This document shows positions 16,255 through 60,381 of a stretch of 64,000 nucleotides of DNA, one piece after another (positions within the stretch are counted from its first letter, which is position 1; every line of letters begins with the position of its first letter). The stretch spans positions 32,001 through 96,000 of the IMG/VR virus record IMGVR_UViG_3300028198_000256; one strand, 5' to 3'. Both the position numbers and the translations under genes were made by a program. This DNA comes from a virus. The notes below the pieces were generated by a model. It was given only the letters and a program-made list of their open reading frames with translations, had not been told where the DNA came from and ran no database searches.

Positions 16255-17187
16255 TCATAAAAAATCATCCAATGTTGATGTTTTCAATCTTTGTTCTGCA
16301 ATCTCAACATATTCAGGGGAAAGTTCACATCCAATATATTTTTTACCTAGAGATTTACTAACTATAGCGGTAGTTCCAGACCCCATAAATGGGTCTAAAA
16401 CAATTCCGTTTGGTGGACATGTAGTTGAAATTGGAGTTTTTATTAAATCCTGTGGGTATACAGCAAAATGTGCCCCCCTATATGATGTCGTTGCAATATC
16501 CCAAACACTGAACATTGGTCTTGTCGGGCATTTACCAGAATCTATTAATTCTTGATAATCAAAATCCTTTTTTATGTTTAAAGTTTCTCTCATTTTAGTA
16601 TAATGTTTATCTTGATTATCAGAAGATAAACTATACCCCTCTTTTACAGAAGCCTTAGCATCTTTTCGTTTATCTAAATTATTATCACTAAACATTCTAC
16701 GAACACTTACCTCAGCTTGGGGAATCACCATTTTACTTCTATCAAAATAATATCCCTTTAAGTTTTTTACAAACCAAAATATTTTTTCATGATTTGACCA
16801 AAATCTATCTTTTGCTGAGATTGGTTGTGGGTTAGGTTTACTCCAAATTATTTCATTACGAAGATACCAACCACGATCCGACATTGCAATTTCAAATCTT
16901 GACGGAACCTGTAAAAGTTTTTTATTATTATAAGTATCTCCAATATTCACCCAACAAGACCCAGTAGGTTTTAGCACACGATAAACTTCGTCAAATACGT
17001 TACACAAATTTTCAACAAATTCTGTTACGGAATCTTCTATGCCTATCTGTTTTTTGTTTTTATAATCACGGAGATTATAATAGGGCGGAGAGGTGATACA
17101 CATATCTACTGAATTATCTGGCAGTTTTCGCAATGATTCTATATTATCTCCAATGTGGATTATTCCAGTTTCTAGTAAATTTGTCAA
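16255..17187 (-). CDS. DNA methyltransferase, N4-C/N6-A beta class
   Basis: TSPPYY catalytic motif before the DPFMGSGTT SAM motif; ends STLDDFL. Confidence 0.92.
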   Translation of the reverse strand: MTNLLETGIIHIGDNIESLRKLPDNSVDMCITSPPYYNLRDYKNKKQIGIEDSVTEFVENLCNVFDEVYRVLKPTGSCWVNIGDTYNNKKLLQVPSRFEIAMSDRGWYLRNEIIWSKPNPQPISAKDRFWSNHEKIFWFVKNLKGYYFDRSKMVIPQAEVSVRRMFSDNNLDKRKDAKASVKEGYSLSSDNQDKHYTKMRETLNIKKDFDYQELIDSGKCPTRPMFSVWDIATTSYRGAHFAVYPQDLIKTPISTTCPPNGIVLDPFMGSGTTAIVSKSLGKKYIGCELSPEYVEIAEQRLKTSTLDDFL

Positions 17188-17723
17188 ATTTCTTCTCCAA
17201 CTGCAACCAACTTGAACTTTTCATATGGGAACAACTTGTCGAATCTATTTTGAGTGATTCCACCACCCTTACTAAAAGTTCCCAACGATCTGGGAAAATT
17301 CTTTCGTTTAGCTTCCTTCCACATATCATAGATCAATGATGATGGAATTTCAAAAACTCTAAAGTCGGGAAACTTTCGTAAATCAAAAATAACATAGGAA
17401 TCAATAGCCTCCATTTTTGATTCCGTTTCCTCATGAATAATCGCCACAGCTCTATCACCACGACCAACACCTGTGGTGGTCGATGGACCAAAATGTGCAG
17501 AAACTTTCCACATATTTCTAACTTCAATTAATTTGTATTTGTAATGAGGGGCAACAACATCCCACTTTTTCTGTTCTTTACCCATTCTCTTACCTTTAAC
17601 ATATTTGGCAGTTTTATTTTCCGACCACCCAGAAAGAGTCACACCAGATAGAGATTCTGTGTATTCTTTCACCGACATATCATCTAATTTAGCATGAGAT
17701 TCAACAGGATATCTTTCTTTCAT
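17184..17723 (-). CDS. Hypothetical protein, possible nuclease coupled to the MTase
   Basis: ATGA overlap with the MTase; WD-x9-IEVR pattern. Confidence 0.4.
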   Translation of the reverse strand: MKERYPVESHAKLDDMSVKEYTESLSGVTLSGWSENKTAKYVKGKRMGKEQKKWDVVAPHYKYKLIEVRNMWKVSAHFGPSTTTGVGRGDRAVAIIHEETESKMEAIDSYVIFDLRKFPDFRVFEIPSSLIYDMWKEAKRKNFPRSLGTFSKGGGITQNRFDKLFPYEKFKLVAVGEEI

Positions 17724-17743
17724 ATTTACCTCTAATTATAATT

Positions 17744-18127
17744 TTAAATTAACTCGTATGGTTTTTCCCAAGTTCCTATCTGCAAATCAATATAAAATGC
17801 AGTATGAAAATAGTCAGTCATAATGTCAGAATCATCAAACCAAGCTTCTCCATTCTCTGCATTGGCAGGTGCAGTCTTAATAATTTCAAGAATTTTATTC
17901 AGAACCTTTGCGGGTTTCTTTGACCAATGTTTATCAATAAAGTATTGATTAACTCCTTCATATTTCTCAGTAGGATCACGGAATTCAGAACGAAAGTCAA
18001 GATCAGACTTCAATATATTAACCGATACGGAATGTTGTCGTTTACGAACAGAAAATTTATACTTTGGGAATTCTTTCTTTAACTCTTTACGAATCTCTCT
18101 AACTTCTTCAGCACTTATATATGCCAT
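17744..18127 (-). CDS. LPD29-like (polyvalent-protein-associated) early protein
   Basis: IRKELKKEFPKYKFSVR...DSDIMTDYFH. Confidence 0.65.
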   Translation of the reverse strand: MAYISAEEVREIRKELKKEFPKYKFSVRKRQHSVSVNILKSDLDFRSEFRDPTEKYEGVNQYFIDKHWSKKPAKVLNKILEIIKTAPANAENGEAWFDDSDIMTDYFHTAFYIDLQIGTWEKPYELI

Positions 18128-18149
18128 CTAACTTCTCCAATAATAAAAA

Positions 18150-18222
18150 TAAATAACCCCAACTCACAGTAATATTATCTCATACTTTTATATAAATGTC
18201 AAGAACTATTTTCATTTATTTT
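18150..18222 (-). repeat. Early promoter/leader cassette copy
   Basis: TTGACA(18202-18197)-17-GATAAT(18179-18174). Confidence 0.88.
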
Positions 18223-18556
18223 AATACCGTGATGGTTTTTCAGGCCAAAAAACAGTTTCAGTCGGTTGACCAGTTGCCAACTCTTCTTCATAAATTTCAT
18301 TGGGTAAGTCTCTCAATTCTTGTCTATACTCCATCCATTCATTTAAATATTCATGAACAGATGAATATCTCGCATAAGGATCACGAAATTTAGCATCATC
18401 CTTATCTCTAATATGAATCTCATTATCTGTATATGTCTTACCAAGCACCGTATATGGACGTGGTAATTTAACACTTACATCTACGCCAATCCAATCACTT
18501 TCTTCCAATAATTCATCACGTTTTTTTCTCAATTCAATCATATCCATAACAACCAC
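18221..18556 (-). CDS. Phage tail-fibre assembly chaperone-like protein
   Basis: LRKKRDELLEESDW...WMEYRQELRDLP...WPEKP. Confidence 0.7.
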   Translation of the reverse strand: MVVMDMIELRKKRDELLEESDWIGVDVSVKLPRPYTVLGKTYTDNEIHIRDKDDAKFRDPYARYSSVHEYLNEWMEYRQELRDLPNEIYEEELATGQPTETVFWPEKPSRY

Positions 18557-18667
18557 CTATTAACTTAAAATATTAACTACTAATGCAACTGAAGCACCAA
18601 TAGACCATAGTGTTAACAATTCATAATCAACAACAACCTCAACTCTACCATCAATCAATCGTACCAA

Positions 18668-18750
18668 CATAATATACTCCAAAAAATAAACTCAATAACC
18701 CCAACTCACAGTAATATTATCTCATACTTTTGTATAAATGTCAAGATTTA
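18668..18750 (-). repeat. Early promoter + leader + SD cassette copy
   Basis: TTGACA(18744-18739)-17-GATAAT(18721-18716); almost identical to the 15499-15595 copy. Confidence 0.88.
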
Positions 18751-19049
18751 TTTGTATATATATTATAAAATATATACAATGCAAAGACAACCATAATAGG
18801 GAATAACAATATATAACTAACGGCTTCTAAAAATGTCATTTCTGATACAAATAAAACCAAAATCTCCCAATTAGTCTTATCAGGCATTATTCTCATTAGG
18901 AATTCTGAATATAATACCCCAAAACCCACCATACTATGAAAGGTAATGTGATTATAAAATGGGATAAAAATGTAGTCTTATTACACCTTAAAATATATAA
19001 CATAGGTTTCTTCATATCACACCTCTTACATACCATTTTTCTAATGCCA

Positions 19050-19949
19050 TTATGTTAAGAAAAAATCATCCAATACAGTTGACGTTGAAGACGTTATATT
19101 ATTATGTTTAATATTATCAACTCCCATTTCAAAATCAGGTCTATTTTTATCCGATTCATTAATAATAATAACATCTTTAAGATCTGTTACATCTTTCCAT
19201 TGTAGTTTATCTTTTTTTGGATAATTCTTAGTCCAATTCATAGACGATAATTTAAGTAATATTTTAGCAGAACGTTTATCTAATGGATATATGTATCTAA
19301 ACATATAACCCTTATATCTACGTATACCACGTTCTTTCATAAATCCTGTGGTCAACCAACTCAACTTATCTTTTTTAAACATATCATCATTACGTCTTTC
19401 CCACTCTACATTTTCTTTACATAAATCTTTACTACTTCTTGGATGTAATTTCTCACCATTTTCCATCATATAAACATCTGTCCAATACCGTTCACCAAAA
19501 TAAAAATTAGATGCTTGATAAACATATCCACATTTACCCATAATTCCATCTGCCATAGTATACAAATATTTACAATTAGTATTCCGTTTAATCCACCTAA
19601 TACTTGATGATATCATGCAAGACCCATATGACTTAGTTCCATTTAATTTAGGTAACAAACACATTTTACCAATTTCAAAATAATAATTAGTCAAAGAATG
19701 TTTATATCCAGAACTCCGAACATTTGGAACATTCAATTCAAACAATTCATCCTTCAACGTTGGTAATATTTTAGCAATAGTATGTCTTGGTCGTGTACCC
19801 CACCCCAATGTCATAACTCCTGATAATTCATCCTTTAAAAAAAACCCAAGATAATGTGTAGTTAGTGCCGGCATAACTGGTGAATAATGATACTTTTCTA
19901 TAAACATAACAGCTGTTATTTTATCAATTTTTTTTACTTCAAACTTCAT
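19050..19949 (-). CDS. Mom-like GNAT-fold DNA adenine modification enzyme
   Basis: FIEKYHYS, GVMTLG, FEIGKMC, LYTMAD...GKCGYVYQASNFYFG, GEKLHPRS; ends VLDDFFLT. Confidence 0.72.
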   Translation of the reverse strand: MKFEVKKIDKITAVMFIEKYHYSPVMPALTTHYLGFFLKDELSGVMTLGWGTRPRHTIAKILPTLKDELFELNVPNVRSSGYKHSLTNYYFEIGKMCLLPKLNGTKSYGSCMISSSIRWIKRNTNCKYLYTMADGIMGKCGYVYQASNFYFGERYWTDVYMMENGEKLHPRSSKDLCKENVEWERRNDDMFKKDKLSWLTTGFMKERGIRRYKGYMFRYIYPLDKRSAKILLKLSSMNWTKNYPKKDKLQWKDVTDLKDVIIINESDKNRPDFEMGVDNIKHNNITSSTSTVLDDFFLT

Positions 19950-21048
19950 AATACTCCATAAGTTCTAATGATTCAGCAACCATTAAATTAGTGATTCTAC
20001 CATTATGTGTATATATACCATTTGTGAAATTAGGATCCACGTTATCAAGACCCATATCAGCCAAAACAGTTATATATGGTAATGTCGCCTTAGTAAGTAT
20101 GTTAGTAGCACTTTTAGGATATGCACCGGGCATATTAGACACACAATAATGAATAACCCCATGGTGCATAAATACAGGGTTCTGATGACTCCTAATATGT
20201 GACGTTTCAATGCAACCACCTTGGTCAATAGACACATCAACCACCACCGAACCGTTCCTCATACTTTTTACCATATCTTCAGTAACAACAATAGGAGATT
20301 TCTTTCCTGGTATTGAAACTGCACCAATAACTAAATCAGCATCTTTAACAGCAGGCTCCAAATTCCATGAAGTGGAACACTTATATTCAATAGAAGTATC
20401 CATATGACCTCTACTCAAATACTCCCAACGATAATCGGTTTCCAACCCTAAAATAATAACATTAGCACCCATCCCATTTGCCATCTCAGCCGCATGTCTA
20501 CCAACAACACCATCACCAACAACTACCACATTACCAGAATTAACACCATTAATTTTTCCTAGTTGTACACCAGACCCATCAAAAAACATTGACTTATCTG
20601 TATACTGAAGATAATAACTACCAATAGTAACCGCCATATTACCAGCAATAGCAGACATAGGTGACAACAACGGTAAATTACCAAAATTATCTGTTATTGA
20701 TTCATATGCTATGGCAGTAGTATTGGTGGATAATAATTTAAGTGTCAGTTCTTTATCTACACCCGCAAGATGAAGATAAGTAAATAATATTTGCCCATTA
20801 AAATATTTGTATTCTTCCACTTGAGGTTCTTTAACTTTAACCACAAGATCCGAATCCCATGCATAAAAGTCGTGGCATATTGTCGCACCGGATGATATGT
20901 AATCATCATCCGAATAACCAGAACCAACCCCAGCTTCAAATGTTACACATACAGAGTGACCTCTATCAACCAATTCACGCACACCATTTGGGGTAATTGC
21001 TACCCTATGTTCGTTTTCCTTTATTTCTTTGATTAATCCAATTTTCAT
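19939..21048 (-). CDS. ald: Alanine dehydrogenase
   Basis: MKIGLIKEIKENEHRVAITP, VKVKEP, FTYLHLA, LPLLSPMS, VDVSIDQGGCIETS, YCVSNMPGA. Confidence 0.95.
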   Translation of the reverse strand: MKIGLIKEIKENEHRVAITPNGVRELVDRGHSVCVTFEAGVGSGYSDDDYISSGATICHDFYAWDSDLVVKVKEPQVEEYKYFNGQILFTYLHLAGVDKELTLKLLSTNTTAIAYESITDNFGNLPLLSPMSAIAGNMAVTIGSYYLQYTDKSMFFDGSGVQLGKINGVNSGNVVVVGDGVVGRHAAEMANGMGANVIILGLETDYRWEYLSRGHMDTSIEYKCSTSWNLEPAVKDADLVIGAVSIPGKKSPIVVTEDMVKSMRNGSVVVDVSIDQGGCIETSHIRSHQNPVFMHHGVIHYCVSNMPGAYPKSATNILTKATLPYITVLADMGLDNVDPNFTNGIYTHNGRITNLMVAESLELMEYYEV

Positions 21049-21652
21049 ATTTAGTCCTCACTGATTCAACTTCCATCAATCTAGGAAGAATTTCATTAAT
21101 AACCCCTATATACAATTCAGATTCAGTAGCACGACAAGCATCACCTAACGATTGCACATCATCATTATCTCTAACTAAAACTAAATTCTGTTTCAATATC
21201 GGTCCAGAATCATATTCATCAGTAACAATATGTACAGTAACTCCTGTAACCTTATCATTAGACTCTAAGACTGATTTATATATATCATCACCAAACATAT
21301 TACCATGTTTAGGCAATAATGATGGATGGATGTTTAATATTCTATTTTCATACCCATTCAATACTATATTATTAACATGTTTCCTGTATCCAGACAACAC
21401 TACCAGATCAGTTGCAACTGATTTTAATTTATTAAAAATAGCATTATCTTCGTCATGTAGATTAGTTTTACCAGATATTATAGAAACATTAATACCATTA
21501 TCATGACACCATTGAACTATAGGAGCATCTTTATTATTACATATAACAACACCAACTTCAGCTACAATTCTCCATGAATTAATTGCTCCTATAACATCCC
21601 TAGCAGCAGTACCACCATCTGACGCCAAAAAACTAATAATTGGTGTCTTCAT
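21005..21652 (-). CDS. purN: Phosphoribosylglycinamide formyltransferase
   Basis: LVVLSGY, ILNIHPSLLPKHG, TGVTVH.V..EYDSGPIL.Q. Confidence 0.85.
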   Translation of the reverse strand: MKTPIISFLASDGGTAARDVIGAINSWRIVAEVGVVICNNKDAPIVQWCHDNGINVSIISGKTNLHDEDNAIFNKLKSVATDLVVLSGYRKHVNNIVLNGYENRILNIHPSLLPKHGNMFGDDIYKSVLESNDKVTGVTVHIVTDEYDSGPILKQNLVLVRDNDDVQSLGDACRATESELYIGVINEILPRLMEVESVRTKYENWINQRNKGKRT

Positions 21653-21656
21653 AATA

Positions 21657-23780
21657 TCACCTCAAATCTTTATCAAAATCATCTACCATAATTGATTCAT
21701 GTTCTAAAATTCCATCTAATTCGCCTTTCAGATTAGACTCATATGCCCTTTCTAAAATATTTAATGCATCCTTTGTATTAGATGATGTAAAAGTTTTATC
21801 TGTCAACCTAGACCTTGCATCAAATCCTAATGCAGATTTAATTGAATTAGGAACATTGACCACCGACTTCACCATTCTACTATTCAACTTATCTGATGGA
21901 CCCTTATATCTTCTACCAAATGGAAATATCAAACGTCTTAATATAAACCCAATGAACTTTGAAGGATAATTGTCTAAAATGTCCTCAAACGATTTCTGTA
22001 TATTATATAATCCAGACTCAGCACCCCATGTAACATATAATATATCATTCTTCTTATCCATATCATCAGTATCTTCGTAACGTTTTAATACCGCAGATGT
22101 CATATACAACTCTGAAAATGCATCTGCAAATCTACCAGTTATTCTTTGTCGTTTCTTAAGATCAGCACCCAACACCGATATACTTATATCAGATAACAAT
22201 GCAAAGTTCTTTGATTCCAATTCAATACGTTTATAATACTTACCAATTTCACATGATGCGTCTTTTGGTTTAGATATAAACATACCACCAGTAATATTAT
22301 GATATAATGACCCAAATATATTACCAATAGTATATTTAAGATGACCCATTAACGCCTTATTAAATGCAATCGCATCACCACATTCAGCAGAAGTTACTTC
22401 ATCTTTTATAAATGGATGACACCGTAAAGATCCTTGAGAAAATACAATTAGAGATCTCGTTAATATATTCGCACCCTCAACAGTATTAGCAATAGGTTGT
22501 GTTATATAATAATTCAATAATAAATTATTAGGACCATCAGATATACCCTTTCCAGCCAAAATGTCCATACCATCAATAATACATTGTCGCATCCTTTCAG
22601 TACATTGATATTTCAACATGGCAGAAATAACAGATGGTTTTTCACCATTTACTATTGCAGTAGTAGTGAGATTACACGCAGCCTCTACAACATAACATTG
22701 TCCAATTATCCTAGACAATGGCTCTTCAATACCTTCCATCTTGGAAATTGGAATTTTAAATTGTTTTCTTATCCTAGAATATGCAGTAGTAACTTTTAAT
22801 GTATGTTTAATACCAGCCATAGATAATGATGGTAATGATATTGCCCTACCAGCCGCAAGACACGCCATTAACATTCGCCAACCCTTTCCTACCCCATCAA
22901 TTCCACCTATAACATGATTCAATGGTAAAAATACATCTTTACCATAATTTGGTCCATTCATAAATGCTTGTCTAGCAGGATAATGTCTGCGTCCTATACG
23001 AACACCCTTAGTATCAGTTGGAACTAATACTAAACTTATACCCTCAACAGGAGGCGAATGCTCAGATTCTTTCAATAACTCATCAGGATCCACAATATGA
23101 CACGCAACACCAAGTAATGTAGATACTGGTCCTAGTGTGATATATCGTTTTTCCCAATTTAATCTAATACCTAATACCTTTTCACCGTCATATTCCCCAT
23201 ATTCAACAACACCATAATCTTCCATCGCCGCAGCATCTGAACCAGAATATGGTCCTGTTAATGCAAATGCCGGTATATCTTTACCTGATGATAATGTAGG
23301 TAACCATTTATCTTTTTGTTCTTGTGTGCCAAACTCATAAAGCAATTCACCAGGACCCAAAGAATTTGGAACCATAGTAGTAATTGCTAATGATATACTT
23401 CTTGATGCTAAAATTGATATGATACACGATTGTGCATATGCTGAAAATTCCAAACCACCATATTCTTTCTTGATATTAAGTGCAAAAAAACCATTATCTT
23501 TTAAATAATCCCACACCTCAACTGGTAAATCTTTATGTATAACATTAACTTCCCAATCAGACACCATTTCACAAACAGTATCAACTTCAGAGTTAATGAA
23601 ATCATGTTCTTCTTGTGTTAATTTAGTTTGTTCTGTATTTAATAATATATCCCAGTTTGGTCTACCACCAAATAACTCAGATTCCCACCATACTGTACCG
23701 GCATCTAAAGCCTCTCTTTCAGTATTTGATATCTTTGGTAATATCTTTTGGAATAATTTCATACCATATTCATTCATCAT
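21657..23780 (-). CDS. fadE: Acyl-CoA dehydrogenase, FadE type (lacks the N-terminal membrane anchor)
   Basis: LPKISNTEREALDAGTVWWE, MVPNSLGPGELL, FALTGPYSGSDA, KRYITLGPV, GRAISLPS, TVEGANILTRSL. Confidence 0.93.
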   Translation of the reverse strand: MMNEYGMKLFQKILPKISNTEREALDAGTVWWESELFGGRPNWDILLNTEQTKLTQEEHDFINSEVDTVCEMVSDWEVNVIHKDLPVEVWDYLKDNGFFALNIKKEYGGLEFSAYAQSCIISILASRSISLAITTMVPNSLGPGELLYEFGTQEQKDKWLPTLSSGKDIPAFALTGPYSGSDAAAMEDYGVVEYGEYDGEKVLGIRLNWEKRYITLGPVSTLLGVACHIVDPDELLKESEHSPPVEGISLVLVPTDTKGVRIGRRHYPARQAFMNGPNYGKDVFLPLNHVIGGIDGVGKGWRMLMACLAAGRAISLPSLSMAGIKHTLKVTTAYSRIRKQFKIPISKMEGIEEPLSRIIGQCYVVEAACNLTTTAIVNGEKPSVISAMLKYQCTERMRQCIIDGMDILAGKGISDGPNNLLLNYYITQPIANTVEGANILTRSLIVFSQGSLRCHPFIKDEVTSAECGDAIAFNKALMGHLKYTIGNIFGSLYHNITGGMFISKPKDASCEIGKYYKRIELESKNFALLSDISISVLGADLKKRQRITGRFADAFSELYMTSAVLKRYEDTDDMDKKNDILYVTWGAESGLYNIQKSFEDILDNYPSKFIGFILRRLIFPFGRRYKGPSDKLNSRMVKSVVNVPNSIKSALGFDARSRLTDKTFTSSNTKDALNILERAYESNLKGELDGILEHESIMVDDFDKDLR

Positions 23781-26614: not shown

Positions 26615-26622
26615 GAACTATT

Positions 26623-27498
26623 TTATAAAAATTCATCCAATGTTGATACGTTACTCTTATAATTCATCAATAACAATTCCTTTCTTTTCTTTTGATTCTC
26701 CACATATGACGTTAACTGATTATTCATGGTGTATGTGAGATCCCATTCCTCTTGAGTCCATTCACTATACCATTCACGCAGAGTTGGATTGGAATTATAT
26801 GTAATCATACACGTATTACCAGACTTTGATACCTTTTCATAGAATTCTCTATGATTAAATCCTTTATGCATCGAACCATCCTTTCCATATAAAGAATCCT
26901 TGATATCATATGGCGGATCCAGAAACAAAAATACATTCGGGTCATCATCAATTAATTCAGAATAATCTAGGTTCGTGATTTTCCAATTCTTGATAATCTT
27001 TCCGAATATTGTTAACGATTCTATTACCCTAAAGTTGAAACAATCTCTCATTGCCCATGTTGACATAGTACCAGATTCAGTTAAACCAGAGAAAGACATT
27101 CTATTCATAGCATACCATCTCCATCCAACCTCAAATGGGTCTGTCTGATCTCCTATCTCCGATTTCATTTCATTGAACAATTCACGACTCTTGTCCACAT
27201 CATCTCCTACTGATTCCTTCTTTTTCTTTAAAATATTGACTAATTGTTCGGTATCACTCTGCAAAGTAATCCAGAAATAATATAGATTCTGATACTTATC
27301 ATTTATATGAATGGGAATATTTGGGAATAAACGTGCAAATGCCAAGGAAGGAGACCCCCCACCACCGAAAGCATCTCGGTACTGGGTAATCTCCTTTATA
27401 TTGGCTGGAAGTTTGGTATCATGAAACAAATACTTCATTGCCTTTGATTTACCACCTGGATACCTTAGTGGTGTTTTATAGTTGTTTAACGACCTCAC
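26623..27498 (-). CDS. Dam-family (D12 class) DNA adenine methyltransferase
   Basis: TPLRYPGGKSK, FGGGGS, FLFLDPPY, ITYN, ELLLMNY; ends STLDEFL. Confidence 0.9.
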   Translation of the reverse strand: MRSLNNYKTPLRYPGGKSKAMKYLFHDTKLPANIKEITQYRDAFGGGGSPSLAFARLFPNIPIHINDKYQNLYYFWITLQSDTEQLVNILKKKKESVGDDVDKSRELFNEMKSEIGDQTDPFEVGWRWYAMNRMSFSGLTESGTMSTWAMRDCFNFRVIESLTIFGKIIKNWKITNLDYSELIDDDPNVFLFLDPPYDIKDSLYGKDGSMHKGFNHREFYEKVSKSGNTCMITYNSNPTLREWYSEWTQEEWDLTYTMNNQLTSYVENQKKRKELLLMNYKSNVSTLDEFL

Positions 27499-28595
27499 TA
27501 TTTGCTATTTACCTCTTCCAACATCCAATCTTCTAAAATAACAGACTGTTCCTTTGGTAATCCATCCTTCGTTTCAATTGGTGAAATATCTTGATGAAGA
27601 AACCCCTTAAACACTATAGGTAAATCAAAAACATACTCTTGACCCGTAGTTTTCTCATAAAACTCTTTAGCAAACAACAAAACATGTTTTTTAAAACTTT
27701 TTAACCACGCCATCCTTTGTCTTTTAAGAACGTCAGATGCCGGCGATGGGTCTTCTATAAACCCTCGGATTTCTATTGGAATATACACACCATCAACTTT
27801 AGATACCTTCTCATTAACAATTAATGCCATACAATCATGCAATAATGGTTTAAATGTGCCTTGGGGTTTAACATAACCACATTTTCCAGATTCCTGTTCA
27901 TTAACAGATCCCTTATATGGCAACGTCTTTTCCTTACAGAAAGCGTTGGCTGAATCACTATCCCATGTTTTAAGTGTAACATGTCCGCTATCACATGCTC
28001 TATACTTTTTAAGTATCAAATTACGATGTTTTGTATCCTTACCAGGAGTCAATTTGATAATAAGATCTTTAATTGCGATTTGTTCTGGGTCTACCAACTT
28101 ATCAGCAGTAATAGTGTTTTGCTCAACACACCTCTTAACAGAATTAACTGTATCTTTAATCCTGTTAATTTTCTTTGGATTGCCATTATTTGAATTGTGT
28201 TTTGCAATTTCTCTAAATAATGGAGTTCTATAAACTACCTTATCAAAAGGTAAACAATCCCACTGCGGAATCTTTGCCGCCTCGTAACGGTGAAACCCAG
28301 TAGTACCCTTATTACCATCACGTGAGTCTTCATATTGCAACGGTGGTTCACCATGATCCCAATTTTTAGCTAAAAAAGATTCCCCAATTTCTGATATATT
28401 TTCCTTAATATTTTCTTCAACCTTGTTTTGGTCATTGACATCAAACCTAACTTTGTTTAAGTTCATAACATGTCTTTTCAAAAATTGCACTCCCGGCTCT
28501 CCATACCATTTTTCCCCATTGGGACCTATGCCATAAATATATTCAGGTGGACACCTTTTTAATGAGTCTTTTAAATCAAAATTTAATTCTAACAT
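27498..28595 (-). CDS. Hypothetical protein with ParB/Srx-like N-terminal domain
   Basis: EPPL...TGFHRYEAA. Confidence 0.5.
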   Translation of the reverse strand: MLELNFDLKDSLKRCPPEYIYGIGPNGEKWYGEPGVQFLKRHVMNLNKVRFDVNDQNKVEENIKENISEIGESFLAKNWDHGEPPLQYEDSRDGNKGTTGFHRYEAAKIPQWDCLPFDKVVYRTPLFREIAKHNSNNGNPKKINRIKDTVNSVKRCVEQNTITADKLVDPEQIAIKDLIIKLTPGKDTKHRNLILKKYRACDSGHVTLKTWDSDSANAFCKEKTLPYKGSVNEQESGKCGYVKPQGTFKPLLHDCMALIVNEKVSKVDGVYIPIEIRGFIEDPSPASDVLKRQRMAWLKSFKKHVLLFAKEFYEKTTGQEYVFDLPIVFKGFLHQDISPIETKDGLPKEQSVILEDWMLEEVNSK

Positions 28596-28759: not shown

Positions 28760-28834
28760 TGGAGCGGACGGGTCGGAATCAAACCGCCTCTTTCTGTATG
28801 GTATACAGATATTCTATCATTAAATTACACCCGC
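28760..28834 (-). tRNA. Atypical tRNA-Gly, anticodon ACC, CCA encoded
   Basis: GCGGGTG/CGTCCGC acceptor, U73 then CCA, anticodon arm TCTGT-ATACCAT-ACAGA; D-loop lacks GG, T-loop TTTGATT, bulged A in the T-stem. Confidence 0.8.
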
Positions 28835-38680: not shown

Positions 38681-39175
38681 TATATATAAGAGGATTTCTG
38701 TTGCCAAGTATCCCCAAACTCCGCATACTTATATACTAAGCTGCAACCGCAAAATTATCATCTGCATTTATTTTTTTGATTTTTACATCTTTCTTGATGA
38801 ATAGTCCATATACAATATAGTACATTGTCGAATCTGTTCTCCCCCACAAAAATTGTCTAGTCACAACCCAAAAGTCCTGCAGAACTTCATGAACGCCACT
38901 TGCGGCTAAGGATACCCGGGAGTTTGTTGTCCCGTGTTCACATACGTCCATATATACATTGTAGAACCCATCATCGCTGGTTTGGTGCTAAGTTAAATGA
39001 ACCCGTTGGCTCTGGGGGAATTCCCCCTCACCATCTTTCGTACGCTCCATCTATTCTACTAAGTATACCGTGTGTCACACATTCCGTATATATGCATTAT
39101 ACATCTACACTAGACAATTTATGTGGAAGAGGTGGGAATCGCACCCACGTCCAACATACATAAAATATACTTCAA
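38681..39175 (-). ncRNA. ssrA: Circularly permuted (two-piece) tmRNA; tag (A)ADDNFAVAA; outer ends approximate
   Basis: Acceptor piece first: GGAC-GTGGG-TGCGATT-CCCAC-CTCTTCC-A, ending at 39124. Coding piece begins at 38845 GGGGGAG-AACAGATTCGAC (G3.U70). Resume context ATAAAT-GCA; tag ORF 38765-38736. Confidence 0.88.
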
Positions 39176-39179
39176 ACTA

Positions 39180-39482
39180 TTATGCTTTTAACTTTAAATC
39201 TTCCTCCGTTACAATATCTTCATACCCATCATACTCACGAACATAAAACTTTAACCCCTCTGTAACATATGACAATCTCATATTATCAAACTCATATAAA
39301 TTATGAGTTGGTTCTGACATCTCCATCACCTGTTTATGAAATGATTTCTCATCCCCATGCAAAAATTCATAAATTAATTCAGCATCCATTCTAAGTGATT
39401 GGGGTTTAATGGAAAATCCACTACCCCAACCAGCATGTATAAGAACTCCTACTTTACCATCTGCACTATAATATTTGCCCAT
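39180..39482 (-). CDS. Conserved hypothetical phage protein
   Basis: GKVGVL..AGWGSGFS...FYVREYDGYE. Confidence 0.65.
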   Translation of the reverse strand: MGKYYSADGKVGVLIHAGWGSGFSIKPQSLRMDAELIYEFLHGDEKSFHKQVMEMSEPTHNLYEFDNMRLSYVTEGLKFYVREYDGYEDIVTEEDLKLKA

Positions 39483-46944: not shown

Positions 46945-47345
46945 TCTAATAAATTTGGAAACACCTCGTCTACTAATCTTCTAGTTAACCACTTAACCTT
47001 CATTTTTTTATTTATAATTTTGACAACGATCTCAGACTCTTTATGATGTAAACTCTCCAAGAATTGAATAAATCTATGTTCACTCCTATAATTAACGAAA
47101 TAAGATTCATCTAAAAATACTTCAAATTCTGATAACCTTTTATGCAAATTACTTAGAGTATATCCCTCCGGAGAATCATCAGGAGTATACTTAGGCACTT
47201 TATCTAATGCAAAATGAAAATCATCAAACATCAATTTTAATGTTTTTAATAATAACTTACTATTATTTTGCAATAACACATGTTTTCTTTCTTTTGTATT
47301 CTTTGCCTCATCAAACTCAAAAAATACTTCGTGTATATGTTTCAT
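46941..47345 (-). CDS. Conserved T4-like hypothetical protein
   Basis: IHEVF...E..FIQFLESLH..E...VFPNLL. Confidence 0.65.
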   Translation of the reverse strand: MKHIHEVFFEFDEAKNTKERKHVLLQNNSKLLLKTLKLMFDDFHFALDKVPKYTPDDSPEGYTLSNLHKRLSEFEVFLDESYFVNYRSEHRFIQFLESLHHKESEIVVKIINKKMKVKWLTRRLVDEVFPNLLD

Positions 47346-48222
47346 TTATATCCTCTTTAAAATTATCTAATTGCATAAAAAACATCATCATTCTACGTGC
47401 TTGAAAATATTCCATCATAGTACGATTGTTACCATTTGGAGATTTAACGAAAGAATCCAATATATTATTAACAATTTCATCTGGTATACATGAAAAATCT
47501 ATAAGTTGTTTGTTTCTATCATATCTTCTAATCATATCCTCATTACAAAATTCTGAAGGGTTCTTCGATATATCCATCATATCAATTATACTTTTTTTAC
47601 GTAAAGATGTCTGCCGTTTACCAGTTGCGAATACATCATCATCTGATAATATATTTGGAATTCCATCTGATCTATCACCCCTTATAATATGTTCTCTTAA
47701 AAACTTTAATGGGTTATCAGTAACTAAAAACTTACCAGCACTTTGACTATATTGAAACACGCCATCATAAATTTGTAATTGTTTAAAATCTTTATCAGAA
47801 GATAATATCAATACCTTTTCAAGATGATGATACTCTTTAGTCAAAATTGCAATAATGTCATCTGCCTCAGTTTTATCAATCTCTAACACTCTATATGGAA
47901 AATAATCAACCAAATCCTTCTTTATGGAAGACATGCCATCAAATACAAATTTCCAATCAAATTTAGAAGTCTCTCTATCTTTCTTCCTAGAATGTTTATA
48001 ATACGGAAATATATCCTTTCGCCAAAAATGTTTATTATCACAACATATAACAATATTACCATATTTTTTAGAATATTTCTTTTTAACAGATAATACATAT
48101 TCTAAAAATAAATTCATAACCGCAGAATATTCAACTATATCATCTGGTTCCTCTCTTAACGTATTGTTCAATTCCCTAATAGATAAACTTATTATAATTT
48201 GATTAAAATCTATTAATATCAT
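47317..48222 (-). CDS. rnh: T4-type RNase H (5'-3' exonuclease)
   Basis: MILIDFNQI, WRKDIFPYYK..R, EADDIIA, SSDKDFKQL, GDRSDGIPN. Confidence 0.93.
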   Translation of the reverse strand: MILIDFNQIIISLSIRELNNTLREEPDDIVEYSAVMNLFLEYVLSVKKKYSKKYGNIVICCDNKHFWRKDIFPYYKHSRKKDRETSKFDWKFVFDGMSSIKKDLVDYFPYRVLEIDKTEADDIIAILTKEYHHLEKVLILSSDKDFKQLQIYDGVFQYSQSAGKFLVTDNPLKFLREHIIRGDRSDGIPNILSDDDVFATGKRQTSLRKKSIIDMMDISKNPSEFCNEDMIRRYDRNKQLIDFSCIPDEIVNNILDSFVKSPNGNNRTMMEYFQARRMMMFFMQLDNFKEDINETYTRSIF

Positions 48223-48739
48223 ATATCACCAATTTATTCACCAAAATCTAAACTAAGGTATTCCGTCACGTCAACATTAGTTCCGCACATACTACAGTAT
48301 TTAACACCATTATCATCGTCATCCATCAACACCACCACATATTCAGATTCACAATTATCACATTTTATTTGTATATCCATATACCTATCCCTCTCTTAAT
48401 AATCAGAACACATCTTCATCCCTTTGAAATTTCTTACTTACTTTTTTATCCTTAAAAGTATTTCTGTATTCTATTTGTTCCCATCTAATTTTACCATACA
48501 TAGAAATAAAACTCTCTTTATCCATTTCTAACCAATCGTTCTCAGACTCAAAATCTATATCATGTAAATTCATTTTAGACATAATACTACACCTACTCTC
48601 CTAACTCATTTTTTTAACAATTCTTCTATATGATCAACTACAGAAGTACTCCTTGCAGCCAACCAAACATTAATATACTTATATCCATATTTTTTACCAA
48701 ATTCAATCATACTCATAGTTTCAACATCATCACTCATAC

Positions 48740-50272: not shown

Positions 50273-50281
50273 ATCATCACC

Positions 50282-52407: not shown

Positions 52408-52416
52408 ATATACCCC

Positions 52417-52830: not shown

Positions 52831-52839
52831 ATCCTTATA

Positions 52840-53445
52840 TTACAAAATAATATCCCTCCAATCCTTATCATCAATATGCTCAATACTTCTTAATGATATA
52901 GGACCAAAATCAGACCTACTAATTAAATCATATGCTTCAAATACAAATGCCCTATTATTTACCCTAGAAAATCCATTTATTCCAGTTTTACCAAATTTAG
53001 GTTTACCTAACTTTTCTTTAACACCAACCCGTCCAAATCCTGGCCAACTGTTCTCACACATATTAGTAGATACCGCATAATAATCAGACTCCTTTTCTGC
53101 ATACGTTATTGCATCCTGTTCAAAATCCTTTCCAAGTTCAATAAGATCTTTTAATAACTTACCAGAATCCTTAAGGTCAACAACATAATATGATGCCTCT
53201 GATACCTCTTTACCACCATTCTCAATCCAAGAACCCTTTATTTTAGTAATACCATATCCACGTTTTAATAACTTAGAACGTAAAATACTATTCTTACCAG
53301 TGTTCTGTTTCTTTGTATACTTAACACCGTCACCACATTCAGCAGTATCTCTAAATGCTGTAATAGTACCAGTATCATGATCTATCCACGCCGACCGAAT
53401 ACGGTTCAATGTCGATTCCGATAGAATCTTTGTTATACTACTCAT
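52840..53445 (-). CDS. Hypothetical phage protein
   Basis: GTITAFR...G.WIE...E.SY...FEQDAI. Confidence 0.6.
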   Translation of the reverse strand: MSSITKILSESTLNRIRSAWIDHDTGTITAFRDTAECGDGVKYTKKQNTGKNSILRSKLLKRGYGITKIKGSWIENGGKEVSEASYYVVDLKDSGKLLKDLIELGKDFEQDAITYAEKESDYYAVSTNMCENSWPGFGRVGVKEKLGKPKFGKTGINGFSRVNNRAFVFEAYDLISRSDFGPISLRSIEHIDDKDWRDIIL

Positions 53446-53454
53446 AAATTTCCC

Positions 53455-54648: not shown

Positions 54649-54660
54649 TTATTTCTCCCT

Positions 54661-56142
54661 TTATAAAAAACTATCCAAATCAGTCACAGGTTCAACCGAA
54701 TCTATTCTTAATGTTGCAATCTCAAAATACTCTTTCTCTCTCTCAATACCAATAAAATCAAATCCTTCATATTTAGCAGCCATACCAGTAGAACCAGAAC
54801 CCATAAATGGGTCTAAAACAGTACCGTCTTTCGGTGTAACCATTCTACATAAGTATTTCATTAACTCTACAGGTTTAACCGTTGGATGTACATTCTTTCG
54901 TTCTGTTACAAATCTTCCAGTAACATCATTATCTATCTTTGATTTATCCATTTCATGTGGATCTCGTCTACCAGACATACTTGATGTCTTTTTGATAGGC
55001 ATTCCATCACAACCCTGATTTCTCTCTTTCTTAGACACCTTTGGCGAATAGAAATATCGTGAGGCAGAACCCTCATCACCATATTCTCTACCGGCTGGGG
55101 TACCAGTTGATTTATCCCGAATACCACCAGATTTTGAACCTTCACCTTTGTATTTACCAGCTTTAGTATCTGGAAATACCCCTTTCACCGCATCAGAACC
55201 ATCATGCATTACATTTGACGGAAATCTACCTCTTGGGTCTGCATCAGCATAATGATTTACTTCCTGTTTCATACCTGAGTTTTCATTAGTAAATACATTA
55301 TCATCGGGTCGAGATTTACGATTAGTTGTTTTCCGTTTTGGAAATACCTCTTTCACAACATCAGAACCATCATGCATTACATTTGATGGGAATCTACCTA
55401 ACTCACTTGATCCTGTTTTTTCTCCAGCATATCCACCAACATAAACATCTTTTGCCATCTTGTCGGTTTTCCAAGTTCCTTTACCACCTAATCTTGAATC
55501 ATCACCCTCGGATAATCCCACTCTACAACCATCAATATTAATACCACCAGTTCCATGCTTCAGAACATTTGCGACAATAGTCTTTTCTGATAATGGTTTC
55601 CTAGCCATAACAACAGGTTCGTGTGCTGGTTTGAGTGCGGTTCCCCACCCCTCATATTCTGAATTACCCATGGTTTCTTTATATGAATCATCACTTTTCC
55701 AATCATCATCATGCATAACTCCGAGTGAACTCATAGGTTTCCCTTTACCGACAACATCTCTTTCATTACCAAGTTTCTTATCAATCTGTTTTCCGATATT
55801 CAAACTCTTTGGAAATCCAGAACCATATAACCACATAATCTGATCTCGTATCTCAAACCCAGCGTCCTCAATAGCAACTGCCATTCTATGATAGGTTCTA
55901 GAACCAGAAAATGCAAGTAAATGACCACCCGGTTTCAATAACTTTAGTGCCAATTCCCATGTTTCTTTAGAAAATGCTATACCAGTATCATCCCATTGTT
56001 TCCCCATAAATCCTAACTCATATGGAGGATCCGTAACAATTGAATCAACTTGCACACCATCTTCTATCATCTGTTTCATTCTATCAATACAATCATCACA
56101 ATACAGTATCATCACCACCATCCTTACTGGGGAAAAAATCAT
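54661..56142 (-). CDS. DNA methyltransferase (N6/N4 beta class)
   Basis: VTDPPYEL, GSGFPKS, HPTVKP, DPFMGSGSTG; duplicated GRFPSNVMHDGSD; ends TDLDSFL. Confidence 0.92.
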   Translation of the reverse strand: MIFSPVRMVVMILYCDDCIDRMKQMIEDGVQVDSIVTDPPYELGFMGKQWDDTGIAFSKETWELALKLLKPGGHLLAFSGSRTYHRMAVAIEDAGFEIRDQIMWLYGSGFPKSLNIGKQIDKKLGNERDVVGKGKPMSSLGVMHDDDWKSDDSYKETMGNSEYEGWGTALKPAHEPVVMARKPLSEKTIVANVLKHGTGGINIDGCRVGLSEGDDSRLGGKGTWKTDKMAKDVYVGGYAGEKTGSSELGRFPSNVMHDGSDVVKEVFPKRKTTNRKSRPDDNVFTNENSGMKQEVNHYADADPRGRFPSNVMHDGSDAVKGVFPDTKAGKYKGEGSKSGGIRDKSTGTPAGREYGDEGSASRYFYSPKVSKKERNQGCDGMPIKKTSSMSGRRDPHEMDKSKIDNDVTGRFVTERKNVHPTVKPVELMKYLCRMVTPKDGTVLDPFMGSGSTGMAAKYEGFDFIGIEREKEYFEIATLRIDSVEPVTDLDSFL

Positions 56143-56380
56143 TTACTTGATGACCTTTAAATTTAATAGTATCAGGTTTTTCAAAACACGACTCATAACC
56201 CTTCCACAACGATTCCATCCTTAACTCAAATAATTTGGATACTGCAACAATATCCTCACGTTCTGAACTAACTCTCATTTTTTTAATAATTAATTCTAAA
56301 TCATCAGAAAATCCCCACACCTTCATTATTAATTGATCTAACTCATACAACCTATCTATTTTATCTTTCTTCATAATCAA
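56096..56380 (-). CDS. Hypothetical protein
   Basis: DRLYELDQLIMKVW. Confidence 0.5.
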   Translation of the reverse strand: MIMKKDKIDRLYELDQLIMKVWGFSDDLELIIKKMRVSSEREDIVAVSKLFELRMESLWKGYESCFEKPDTIKFKGHQVNDFFPSKDGGDDTVL

Positions 56381-56828
56381 CCCTTATACTTGTTATACAT
56401 CCCCATATAATAATTATAACACATAGCAGAACAATACATATTTTCACACTTTTCTATCCACTCATCACTAGGATATCCATCATCATAATATACCGCCAAT
56501 GGTCTATACACAGGAGCATTTATATCAAAAAAGGCATACTTCCCATTTACTCTTTGTAATTCTGGTATATTAATAAGTCCAACAGACACCCTCTTTATCA
56601 CATATAAATTTTTCATCAGTCGACTCGCACCAACAGATGTTGCATCACACATCTGCACACACAGGTACAAGTGAACACACCCACCTAATACCATATCTAT
56701 CAAATGAAACCTTATAGATATTAAACACATTACGCACATTAACATCTAATACAATACCATATCCATATCTTCCAGATATAACACCATCTCCACTACATAT
56801 TTCTCTCATAACTATTCCCTACTAAAAT

Positions 56829-56904
56829 TGGTGGGTCTGGTAGGACTCGAACCTACACTCGGCCGATTATGAGTCGGATGCATTAACCATTATGCTACAG
56901 ACCC
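56829..56904 (-). tRNA. tRNA with CAU anticodon, probably Ile2 (lysidine type); CCA encoded
   Basis: GGGTCTG/CAGACCC-A-CCA, anticodon loop CTCATAA, T-arm GTAGG-TTCGAGT-CCTAC. Confidence 0.9.
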
Positions 56905-57043
56905 CATTCTTTAAAACAAATGATAAGCAAAATATATTCCTGTCACAACCAAATGAAATAAAACTAAATTCGGTTCAAACGTTATTTTTCTATCTATTAA
57001 ATTAACTAACATATTCTCCCCAATTAAAACAACTTTATAACAT

Positions 57044-57072
57044 ATAATACCACAATATGACTCAAATGTCAA
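57044..57072 (-). promoter_or_regulatory. sigma70-type promoter upstream of tRNA-CAU
   Basis: TTGACA-17-TATTAT. Confidence 0.7.
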
Positions 57073-59344
57073 GTCTTTTTTCAATAAACATTGAAATTCT
57101 TTCCCATATTAAATCAGAATTATTATACAATATACCATGACAATCAGAACCAATAATATGCATTTCTTTATCTACAGAAGATATATTATTATATATATAA
57201 TCAGCACCATCTACTGAAACTAATGTGTCATCCTTAGAATAAATGACCAACATAGGTATTGTTACATCACATAAACACTTCTTCACACTTTTAACTAATT
57301 TACCTATTTCATATATACTACGTGTGGGAACTAACCAATAATTAATATGTTCATTCTCTGGAATATTCTTAAAAAAAGGTTTCACTCCATTATTCCCTAT
57401 CACCAAACCCACCACCCTATTAACATAATGAACTAATGGTGCAAATTTAACCCGGAAATCCGTATAAAAAAATGGAGCTGATATAACAACTACTGATTTA
57501 ACTCTATAATCAGAAGAAAATTCTTCACGTAATGCAATAAGTCCGCCAGTAGAAAATCCAACAATCACAATATTTTCAGATAACATAGAAGTTATTTGAA
57601 AATACTCGTATACTGATTTAATCCAATCTTCATAACTATATGATAACAAATCATAAGGTGATGTACCATGTCCAACTATTCTTGCACCAACTACAATATA
57701 TCCTATACCACATAAATATTCACCAAAACCTCTAACTTCATATGGAGATGACAATAATCCATGGATTAATAACACAACAATACCATTAGACTTCTTAGGA
57801 AATAGAATAAATGGTTTATTATCAGAAGAATTAATACCATCAAATTTAGAATTATATTTATCATTAATATACATATTCTTATCGTACTCATATGACAACT
57901 GTTGGTCGTCCAATAAATGCATTGCAATATCTTTGTTACTAATAGTATCTACACTTTCAACAATCTTATTAATAACTTTACCAACAATAGAAACCGGCTG
58001 TACTTCATTATAATATACAACTAATAAATTCTCAACCCTAACCGTCAACGGATCTACACCAGAATCAAAATTACCAGATAAATATATAACATCACCACCA
58101 ATAATTAGCAATCCTTGTTTTTCAAGAGAATCAATATACTTAATCATGTTAACATTATTACCATTTAATATATCACCATATATATTAGGTCGCATTAAAC
58201 CATCGTGCAACCTCACTCCTGATTTATGTTGTAATGTTTTTAATGTTAAATATAACTCCTTATAAAGTGTTTTCTTATTTACAAATGATATATTTTGTTT
58301 GAATCTATACATCAATAAACAAGATGTCAGATGGCTTAAATTAATAGTAACATAAGAATAAATACTTTTAGTGTAAAAGTCACGTGTAACATTAGAACAC
58401 TTTATGAGATGTTTATGCAACATCTCACCTTTCCAAGACTTATCAACACTACCAATAGAAAACACATCATCTAAGGATTTTATAGAATCAGTAAATGTTT
58501 CAGTTAAAGATGACTTCCATGAATGCCAAATACCGGAGGTAGATATCACTTTACTCATAACAACATCCATATCAGTATCTTTAGTAATTAAATTCCCCTC
58601 AACTATCAATTCTTCTGTTTGTCGTAATGTAAGTCCATTAGAAATATATTCAACAGCCTTCAATAAAACATTATCAGTCGCACGTAAAGGATAAAACGTT
58701 ATATTAGATGCAACTATATTAGTAGGTATTTCTACTGCTGCCAATAACTCATCCAAACTATGAAAATCTAATTCCTTTTGCCACATTAATAATCTATCCA
58801 TATCCATATCTCTATGAGCATTACGAACTATGAACTTAAACACCTCCAACCCATGTGACAAAACAGCTGCACCAGTATGTTGTTTCCGCACTTTCATGGT
58901 TGTTTGACATAACATATTATAATGTCCTTCATCATCAACAACCCGATGATCCTTTACCATCCCACCTTCAGGGAAAATAACTACTTTATGACCATGTAAT
59001 ATTTGTTTTGCTAATATAGAAAACAACCTTGGATGATCATGTGGTACAACCCCCAACTTCGTTAAATACGATGACAATATACCATCATTTTTAAAAAATT
59101 CACCAGAACCAACAGAATAACAATAACTACCATTTTCTTCATGTATCAAATATTGAGGAATAAATGTTTCTATACGAGAAAAATGATTAAATACAAATAT
59201 ACTACCATCATTTATATTACACGCAGAATGAATATTAACATTCATGCGTAACACTTTCTTCATAATACGAAATGCTCGTAAAGACAAACGATACATACGT
59301 TTGTCTATATCAACCCAATCATGATTATACTTAGAAAGTTTCAT
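57062..59344 (-). CDS. Acyltransferase (PlsC/PlsB-like) fused to an alpha/beta-hydrolase esterase
   Basis: FNHFSRIE and IFPEGG acyltransferase blocks; C-terminal LIHGL, GHGT, GFSTGG, D..V, H triad. Confidence 0.8.
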   Translation of the reverse strand: MKLSKYNHDWVDIDKRMYRLSLRAFRIMKKVLRMNVNIHSACNINDGSIFVFNHFSRIETFIPQYLIHEENGSYCYSVGSGEFFKNDGILSSYLTKLGVVPHDHPRLFSILAKQILHGHKVVIFPEGGMVKDHRVVDDEGHYNMLCQTTMKVRKQHTGAAVLSHGLEVFKFIVRNAHRDMDMDRLLMWQKELDFHSLDELLAAVEIPTNIVASNITFYPLRATDNVLLKAVEYISNGLTLRQTEELIVEGNLITKDTDMDVVMSKVISTSGIWHSWKSSLTETFTDSIKSLDDVFSIGSVDKSWKGEMLHKHLIKCSNVTRDFYTKSIYSYVTINLSHLTSCLLMYRFKQNISFVNKKTLYKELYLTLKTLQHKSGVRLHDGLMRPNIYGDILNGNNVNMIKYIDSLEKQGLLIIGGDVIYLSGNFDSGVDPLTVRVENLLVVYYNEVQPVSIVGKVINKIVESVDTISNKDIAMHLLDDQQLSYEYDKNMYINDKYNSKFDGINSSDNKPFILFPKKSNGIVVLLIHGLLSSPYEVRGFGEYLCGIGYIVVGARIVGHGTSPYDLLSYSYEDWIKSVYEYFQITSMLSENIVIVGFSTGGLIALREEFSSDYRVKSVVVISAPFFYTDFRVKFAPLVHYVNRVVGLVIGNNGVKPFFKNIPENEHINYWLVPTRSIYEIGKLVKSVKKCLCDVTIPMLVIYSKDDTLVSVDGADYIYNNISSVDKEMHIIGSDCHGILYNNSDLIWERISMFIEKRLDI

Positions 59345-60381
59345 AATGTTAAAAAACCATCAAGTGTCGGAATATTCTTACGTTCAATCTCAGTATTAAC
59401 ATTCTCTTTAGTTATCTTAAAAAACTGTTCTGATGCTTCAAATCCAATATACTTTCTACCAAGTTGTGATGCTCTAACTAATGTAGTTCCTGTGCCAGAA
59501 AAGGGGTCAAGAACAACACCACCTACTGGACAACCCGCAATTATAGGTTTATCAATTAATTCTGAATTATATGAAGCAAGGTGTGAAGAACGATTACCCT
59601 TTATCGTGATATTCCAAAAATCAGACACATCACCCGGGTTCTTTCCTTTTGGATTTAATGAAGTATTACCACTATTGTATTCATCAATATCACGTCCACC
59701 ATTCTTTGGTCTAGAAAGAGTTTGAGCGGAACTCACCCCAATACCAGTAGAATACTTATTTTCATTAGTACCACGTAAGGCTCTTTTAATAGAAGTAGTC
59801 ATATTCTCATCACGAATAGAATCAAGGTCAAAATAATAACCTTTAGGTTTCTTCGTCATTAAAAAGATATATTCGTGTTTCTTTGAGAATCTATCACGAA
59901 CCGATTCAGGCATACCATTTCTCTTTGCCCAGATTATATCATTACGAATAGTCCATCCACGGTCATAACAACCAATAGCAAATCTATGAGGAATCAATAA
60001 TAAACTTTTAGGTTTCAAATCAGATGGTTGGTTAATCTTCATACCACCCAAATAATCACCAGTTCTACTTCCAGTATGACCAGTATTAAGTCCACCAGAT
60101 TTAGTAGAATATGTATCACCAAGATTGATCCATACAGTACCAGTATCTTTTAAAACTCTATGAATTTCATCCATCATTTCCCATAAATGTTCAAGATATT
60201 CTTGGAATGTGGGTTCTAATCCCCACTGACCATCAAACCCATAATCCCTTAATTGCCAATATGGTGGTGACGTAATGACACAATCAATAGAATTATCATC
60301 TAACTTTTTGAAACCTTCCATGATGTCACAATTATATATTTTATCCAAATTAAACCCCCCACTATATTCATAGTATACCAC
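59341..60381 (-). CDS. DNA methyltransferase, N4-C/N6-A beta class (start probably a few codons downstream)
   Basis: TSPPYWQLRDY, IIWAKRNGMPES, DPFSGTGTT; ends PTLDGFLTL. Confidence 0.92.
   Translation of the reverse strand: MVYYEYSGGFNLDKIYNCDIMEGFKKLDDNSIDCVITSPPYWQLRDYGFDGQWGLEPTFQEYLEHLWEMMDEIHRVLKDTGTVWINLGDTYSTKSGGLNTGHTGSRTGDYLGGMKINQPSDLKPKSLLLIPHRFAIGCYDRGWTIRNDIIWAKRNGMPESVRDRFSKKHEYIFLMTKKPKGYYFDLDSIRDENMTTSIKRALRGTNENKYSTGIGVSSAQTLSRPKNGGRDIDEYNSGNTSLNPKGKNPGDVSDFWNITIKGNRSSHLASYNSELIDKPIIAGCPVGGVVLDPFSGTGTTLVRASQLGRKYIGFEASEQFFKITKENVNTEIERKNIPTLDGFLTL

Follow-up and report, generated by a model that had tools for sequence, protein, structure and literature searches.

A stretch of 64,000 nucleotides, hereafter referred to as the window, corresponds to bases 32001-96000 of the IMG/VR virus record IMGVR_UViG_3300028198_000256, which has 115,003 bp and an estimated completeness of 64% (CheckV). 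The window has a G+C content of about 32%, and nearly all of its genes are located on the minus strand. It encodes five enzymes that are predicted to modify DNA, and each of them ends in a short peptide of the type (T/V/D)-L-D-x-F-(L/F), followed by zero to two residues. Here, we describe these five enzymes and compare their C-terminal tails with the end of the DNA polymerase encoded by the same record and with those of related phage proteins. Based on this comparison, we propose that the tail is likely to be a peptide that binds the gp45 sliding clamp.

The five DNA-modifying enzymes and their C-terminal tails

Three of the five enzymes, MT1, MT4 and MT5, are beta-class N6/N4 DNA methyltransferases of family PF01555. 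MT1 [16255..17187 (-)] has 310 amino acids (aa) and matches the family at 2e-53, with the motif SPPY at residue 33 and FMGSG at residue 267; its tail, STLDDFL, is encoded at 16258-16278 (-). MT4 [54661..56142 (-)], which has 493 aa and a large insertion, matches at 3.6e-34, has DPPY at residue 38 and ends in TDLDSFL, encoded at 54664-54684 (-). MT5 [59341..60381 (-)] has 346 aa, matches at 3.9e-49, has SPPY at residue 38 and ends in PTLDGFLTL, encoded at 59344-59370 (-). The fourth methyltransferase is a Dam-like D12 N6-adenine enzyme of 291 aa [26623..27498 (-)], which belongs to PF02086 (9e-24) and has DPPY at residue 194. Its tail, STLDEFL, encoded at 26626-26646 (-), stands behind the conserved core end ..LLLMNY. 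In all four methyltransferases, the catalytic (D/S)PPY and the FxGxG motif that binds S-adenosylmethionine (SAM) are intact, and the family hidden Markov models score above the curated cut-off.

The fifth enzyme is a Mom-type GNAT adenine modifier of 299 aa [19050..19949 (-)], which matches PF25680 at 7e-46, above the cut-off, and has the Mom/GNAT fold. It is composed of a core, a polar linker of about 45 residues and the tail TVLDDFFLT, encoded at 19053-19079 (-). The Mom-type enzyme was the only modifier that was folded. Its AlphaFold2 model is confident, with a predicted local distance difference test score (pLDDT) of 86.6, and the top structural match is Mom of phage Mu (8BV8; E 2.5e-12, TM-score 0.74 on the target). 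Confidence drops after about residue 270, and residues 287-299 have a pLDDT below 50 and form a short helical turn. In this model, the last 13 residues probably represent a flexible short linear docking motif. The enzyme has a C-terminal extension of about 50 residues, which the solved Mu Mom chains cannot cover because they are only 202-222 residues long; the end of Mu Mom itself was not read. The tails lie past the ends of the Pfam domains and past the core ends of the homologues.

The translations confirm the five C-termini exactly as they had been quoted in a sequence-only reading of the window. The three enzyme families that it had recognised agree with Pfam, in which three of the enzymes match PF01555 and one each matches PF02086 and PF25680. 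The tail had also been said to occur on no other protein of the window, and this holds for open reading frames (ORFs) of at least 45 aa, none of which, besides the five modifiers, has LD.F[LF] within five residues of its end. The whole 115-kb record adds a single case outside the window, a gp43-type DNA polymerase that ends in ..NVLDDFL. With the motif placed at most two residues from the C-terminus, 6 of 166 ORFs have it, while 0.016 are expected from composition (Poisson P ~2e-14), and the highest count in 20,000 shuffles is 2. Over the record there are three members of PF01555, one of PF02086 and none of PF00145, so that every recognisable modifier carries the tail. No further DNA modifier was found with Pfam or PHROGs among 94 ORFs. 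These take in almost every ORF of 95 aa or more from the window and the replication module, but from the structural region (record 1-32000) only about five. As far as families can tell, all five modifiers of the record are tailed.

A relaxed motif scan returned two further proteins. A baseplate-hub protein (phrog_150) outside the window, at record positions 14690-15439 (+), ends in ..GIVDFFV, which resembles the L-D-F-L-F of T4, and it was set aside as a probable chance match on a structural protein. The second is a 365-aa ORF [27498-28595 (-)], whose stop codon overlaps the start of the Dam-like gene and which was flagged for a subterminal ILEDWML. It belongs to no family, has a GFHRYEAA stretch, ends in ..ILEDWMLEEVNSK and has a weak ParB_N lead in a protein atlas (12% of one cluster). 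This ORF is missing at that position in phages with a 98%-identical Dam, and it was not counted as tailed. Separately, a 48-aa ORF [48234-48380 (-)], located just upstream of the gene for a T4-type RNase H, ends in ..YLSLDFGE, in which SLDF is as in the T4 motif.

Genes for an alanine dehydrogenase and a formyltransferase adjoin the Mom gene. A weak tRNA-like match [28764-28834 (-)], with 29.9 bits, is barely over the gathering score and is not called by ARAGORN. Its position is just upstream of the gene pair of Dam and the 365-aa ORF, with the Mom gene about 9 kb away, and it is of interest there because Mu Mom uses glycyl-tRNA as a donor (PMC13219725). The Mom-type enzyme of the window is probably glycyl-tRNA-dependent. 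A gene of the S-adenosylmethionine lyase family [52840-53445 (-)] (PF23780, 1.5e-10) accompanies the four SAM-dependent DNA methyltransferases, in an apparent conflict over the supply of SAM.

The polymerase tail and the ends of related enzymes

The record encodes, outside the window, a T4-type replication module with a gp43 family-B polymerase, a gp45 clamp (PF09116) and a gp44 and gp62 clamp loader (families Gp44_lid/AAA and Phage_clamp_A). A gp41-like helicase, a primase, UvsX, gp46/gp47 and RegA are also encoded there. The clamp profile matches the gp45 structures of RB69 and T4 (1B77/1B8H, 1CZD) at 1e-45 to 1e-47, and these matches include the structure of the RB69 clamp with the gp43 peptide (1B8H). 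Among phages in culture, members of the Kyanoviridae, namely phage C48C1 and cyanomyoviruses, come closest; as the polymerase identity to them is only about 47%, the record is assigned to an uncultured marine T4-like lineage.

The sequence-only reading had proposed to look for gp45 and gp43 in the full genome and to compare the tails. Both are encoded, and gp43 ends in NVLDDFL, like the modifiers. All 80 related gp43 proteins with a complete end, from viral contigs, end in (S/T)(L/M)(D/E)x(F/I/L)(F/L) followed by zero to two residues, at the position of the clamp-binding peptide of T4/RB69 gp43. In T4/RB69, the homologous C-terminal peptide of gp43 binds gp45 (PDB 1B8H family; PMC9690074), and gp33 and gp55 also bind gp45 through C-terminal LDFL motifs (PMC9690074). 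Since the modifier tail is identical in kind and in position to the gp43 ends, it corresponds to the polymerase-type clamp tail of the clade itself. We therefore consider it likely, from these comparisons, that the tail [S/T/P/N]-x-L-D-x-F-[L/F] is the gp45 clamp-binding peptide of this clade, appended to all five modifiers.

The modifier tails also follow the tail of the polymerase encoded in the same genome, with FL endings in this clade and FF(G) endings in other phages such as Melnitz and C48C1. Such agreement would be expected of proteins that have to fit one and the same clamp pocket. In the clade of the record (G000, G004, G011), gp43 ends in ..DDFL and the modifiers all end in ..FL or FFLT. 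In G001/G002, gp43 ends in STLESFF and Mom in VTLESFF. In the cultured Methylophilales phage Melnitz, gp43 ends in TTLEDFFG and the Mom homologue, annotated as DUF465, in ATLEGFF; in the cultured phage C48C1, gp43 ends in ATLEDFFG and the adjacent Dam-like enzyme in STLDAFFG. For MT4, the pairs of polymerase and modifier ends are SSLDNFFI and SPLLDFFE (G048) and TTLEDFFS and APLMEFFS (G049), and for MT5 they are VSLEDFF and PTIEDFI (G010).

Related enzymes show where the tail begins. Dam-like relatives have the common core end ..LL(L/F)NY, with or without a tail behind it. In the closest relatives (86-98% identity), STLDEFL or STLDKFLS follows the core, and a few relatives at 45-52% identity have NPLERFFS, NTLEDFMI or TSLDTFLS. 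Some 55 others, with an identity of about 42%, end a few residues past NY, with no motif. A terminal peptide of the h-x-x-aromatic class, for example ANLDTFLQ, STLNEFF or STLDEFYN, is present in 102 of the 120 best Mom homologues. The Mom proteins of the non-T4-like Psychrobacter phage Y8A and Edwardsiella phage ET-ABTNL-9, both of which are without gp43, stop at the core and are tail-less. A minority of Mom homologues (P0273-P0392) end in ..VA(A/E/T)LP(I/V), which resembles the end ..RVATLPV of the Melnitz protein (L299:10704-10949) that is similar to the late-transcription coactivator gp33. These ends may, by this likeness, be a second, gp33-type clamp tail.

Relatives of MT1 at 65-77% identity have varied tails, and in those at 66-77% the cores are highly conserved and the ends are diverse (KVGGIFT, SLGILAFT, SNLKDFIEK, TSLDDFFV or none). 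Among its 120 closest homologues (P0153-P0272), ..KVGGIFT is found in 69 and ..SLGILAFT in 9, and the h-x-x-I-F spacing is reminiscent of ..TMDDIFG, in which gp43 proteins of another lineage end. Relatives of MT4 have SPLLDFFE or APLMEFFS in gp45 phages and no motif in distant ones. The 70 complete relatives of MT5 include 5 with a T4-type tail and 58 with a beta-clamp-type tail, Q-x-x-L-F, which is the canonical motif for the beta-clamp of bacteria; this is the most telling of the comparisons. The gp45 profile matched none of the 22 Q-x-x-L-F records tested, about half of which are at least 90% complete, and DnaN is likewise lacking in 4 of the 22. For comparison, gp45 is present in the T4-type-tail records G000, G004 and G010. 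The association of MT5 tail type with gp45 has a Fisher P of about 4e-4, with counts that are small and phylogenetically non-independent. Taken together, these comparisons strongly support that the tail type changes with the clamp available, and that the tail is a swappable add-on behind conserved catalytic cores.

Partner and role of the tail

Several observations weigh against the proposed clamp binding. The genomes in which modifier and polymerase tails covary are related, so that the independent events are few. Neither gp33 nor gp55 was found on the 64%-complete record, with PHROGs or by tblastn with the Melnitz proteins, so that these two proteins provide no cross-check of the motif here; in Melnitz, the gp55-like protein has GLEKFY about 18 residues from its end. 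The T4-type RNase H of the window [47317-48222 (-)] ends in ..TRSIF, without the motif. Furthermore, cyanophage Dam homologues are without a tail although gp45 is present in these phages, in many cases only a few kb from the Dam gene, which itself often adjoins the clamp-loader genes; this indicates that tethering is a lineage-specific option and not a necessity. By contrast, a complex prediction with three gp45 chains and Mom residues 255-299, run without controls, weighs neither for nor against binding; its ipSAE values were 0.19 and 0.09, both short of the 0.32 mark.

Tailed cellular homologues had been named in the sequence-only reading as a finding that would refute the clamp-docking tag. 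None was found, in a search whose cellular matches are contigs of metagenome-assembled genomes (MAGs), a weak sample of truly cellular homologues. The sole nominally cellular match with a T4-type tail comes from a MAG. Judging by its coordinates, a gp45 gene of the same bin lies about 11 kb away, apparently on the same contig, with the contig numbering unreconciled. This match is probably a phage contig.

A shared short peptide could also be a matter of chance, of compositional bias or of an element at the DNA level. Its codons, TTG GAT GAT TTT TTA, are the preferred ones of an AT-rich genome, and a recombination site, promoter or terminator lying over the 3' ends of the genes would also leave similar ends. 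The excess of six occurrences over the 0.016 expected speaks against chance or compositional bias. The likeness of the tails at the DNA level is limited to about 15 coding bases, with nothing conserved past the stop codons, and relatives keep the class of peptide with other residues and other codons. This explanation is effectively refuted, and we regard it as extremely improbable. If the peptide itself is what is conserved, what is shown is that polymerase and modifiers share it, and both could dock through it on a common partner other than the clamp, such as the clamp loader, a gp32-type single-stranded DNA-binding protein or a phage hub. However, the homologous gp43 peptide of T4/RB69 binds gp45 (1B8H family; PMC9690074), and orthologues in gp45-less phages bear a beta-clamp motif at the same position, which agrees well with a clamp as the partner and badly with any other. 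A partner of this kind seems very unlikely.

The tails could also bind the clamp with a mainly regulatory role, competing with the polymerase or the late-transcription factors, timing modification, or marking the enzymes for turnover. Five extra clients on one trimeric clamp would indeed compete with gp43, gp33 and gp55, and the cyanophage Dam works without a tail. Yet all tailed proteins besides the polymerase are DNA-modifying enzymes, and the numerous metabolic and regulatory proteins are tail-less, a restriction that points to substrate targeting. We judge a mainly regulatory role to be unlikely, if a little less so than a partner other than the clamp.

The sequence-only reading had inferred that horizontally acquired modifiers were each given a clamp-docking tag. 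Of this, clamp docking by the tail gains comparative support from the tail of the resident gp43, from the clamp and loader genes and from the exchange of tails among relatives. The docking tag is not universal, as the tail-less cyanophage Dam shows. That modification is thereby coupled to replication is somewhat less certain than the clamp-binding role of the tail. The earlier reading had also inferred that modification is directed to phage DNA. The comparisons lend no support to a discrimination between phage and host DNA, and a kinetic link with replication is no less probable.

The following course of events can be proposed. The tail has been appended, behind a short or a long flexible linker, to four SAM-dependent methyltransferases and one Mom-type modifier. 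The gp44/gp62 loader would place gp45 at primer termini at the forks, and clamps would be left behind on the nascent duplex. The five modifiers would dock on gp45 through their tails and slide or sample nearby sites, so that adenine and possibly cytosine methylation, together with the Mom-type adenine modification, would be laid down directly behind the fork. Fresh phage DNA would then be modified quickly and processively, ahead of host restriction or packaging.

Genomic setting and comparison with known systems

The window has many auxiliary metabolic genes, and its segment 768-46103 is unusually dense in metabolic and chaperone genes. This segment encodes a malate/lactate dehydrogenase, an HpcH/citrate-lyase-like protein, a FadE-like acyl-CoA dehydrogenase, a FadJ-like enzyme, a thiolase and a class-3 lipase, as well as a thiamine pyrophosphate (TPP) enzyme, a phosphoribosyl pyrophosphate (PRPP) synthetase, a dihydroorotate dehydrogenase, an aspartate decarboxylase and a pyrophosphatase. 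An FTR1 permease, DnaK and DnaJ are further gene products of this segment, as are the alanine dehydrogenase and the formyltransferase named above. There is a permuted tmRNA [38736-39181 (-)] (Rfam RF04321, 89.9 bits, E 6e-16), and the cultured relative Melnitz likewise has an annotated tmRNA. A clear tRNA-Met [56829-56904 (-)], with 72 bits, is called by ARAGORN as well.

The closest likeness to the tails is found in gp43, gp33 and gp55 of T4/RB69. As here, a short hydrophobic and acidic peptide that the resident gp43 also has forms the very C-terminus, and a gp45-type clamp is accompanied by its gp44/gp62 loader. The spacing h-x-x-aromatic-hydrophobic is as in the T4 sequence L-D-F-L-F. The T4/RB69 proteins are replication and transcription factors, whereas the clients here are methyltransferases and Mom, whose binding is predicted from sequence; the clade sequence is L-D-x-F-L and that of T4/RB69 is S-L-D-F-L.

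The eukaryotic methyltransferase DNMT1 binds PCNA, and a short linear motif recruits it to nascent DNA (PMC9690074). It resembles the enzymes of the window in being a DNA methyltransferase with a short linear clamp motif, a PIP-box that serves replication-coupled maintenance methylation. DNMT1 is a single enzyme with an internal, N-terminal motif, while here five viral enzymes of three families have C-terminal tails; its purpose is epigenetic inheritance, and that of the tailed enzymes is presumably anti-restriction. Phage proteins that use the bacterial beta-clamp through a short motif are also known. MuC of phage Mu, a clamp-dependent phage transcription factor, is such a client with a motif of the QL[S/D]LF type (bioRxiv 10.1101/2025.01.04.631326). 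The MT5 orthologues of gp45-less phages end in Q-x-x-L-F at the position of the tail, but the enzymes of the window bear the gp45 type and not the beta type. Mu Mom itself matches the Mom-like protein in family and in fold, and the paper on its mechanism makes no mention of a clamp (PMC13219725). The full-text literature searched, which misses most subscription journals, yielded no account of phage methyltransferases or Mom tethered to a clamp. The known analogues are DNMT1-PCNA and the clamp-dependent phage transcription factors (T4 gp33/gp55 and MuC).

With less assurance than for clamp binding itself, we lean towards a more general interpretation, in which the catalytic cores carry a modular, exchangeable clamp address. 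T4-like phages would have a gp45-type tail as the address, which co-evolves with the polymerase tail (FL or FF), and phages that use the host clamp would have Q-x-x-L-F. Clamp-tethered modification would then be a widespread and undescribed anti-restriction strategy, here used by the whole arsenal including Mom. The instance is notably complete, since five of five modifiers are tailed, they belong to three families of which Mom is one, the tails covary as FL or FF, and two cultured phages serve as anchors. The presence of the same pattern in these two, the Methylophilales phage Melnitz and phage C48C1, makes it directly testable there. Provided that the tails do bind the clamp, phages would resolve the race of self-protection against restriction through modifiers that ride the replication clamp, in a viral counterpart of DNMT1-PCNA. 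That orphan phage methyltransferases can keep up with genomes replicating rapidly would then find an explanation. The pattern would also give a simple sequence rule that predicts which clamp a phage enzyme uses, and portable tags for targeting enzymes to nascent DNA.

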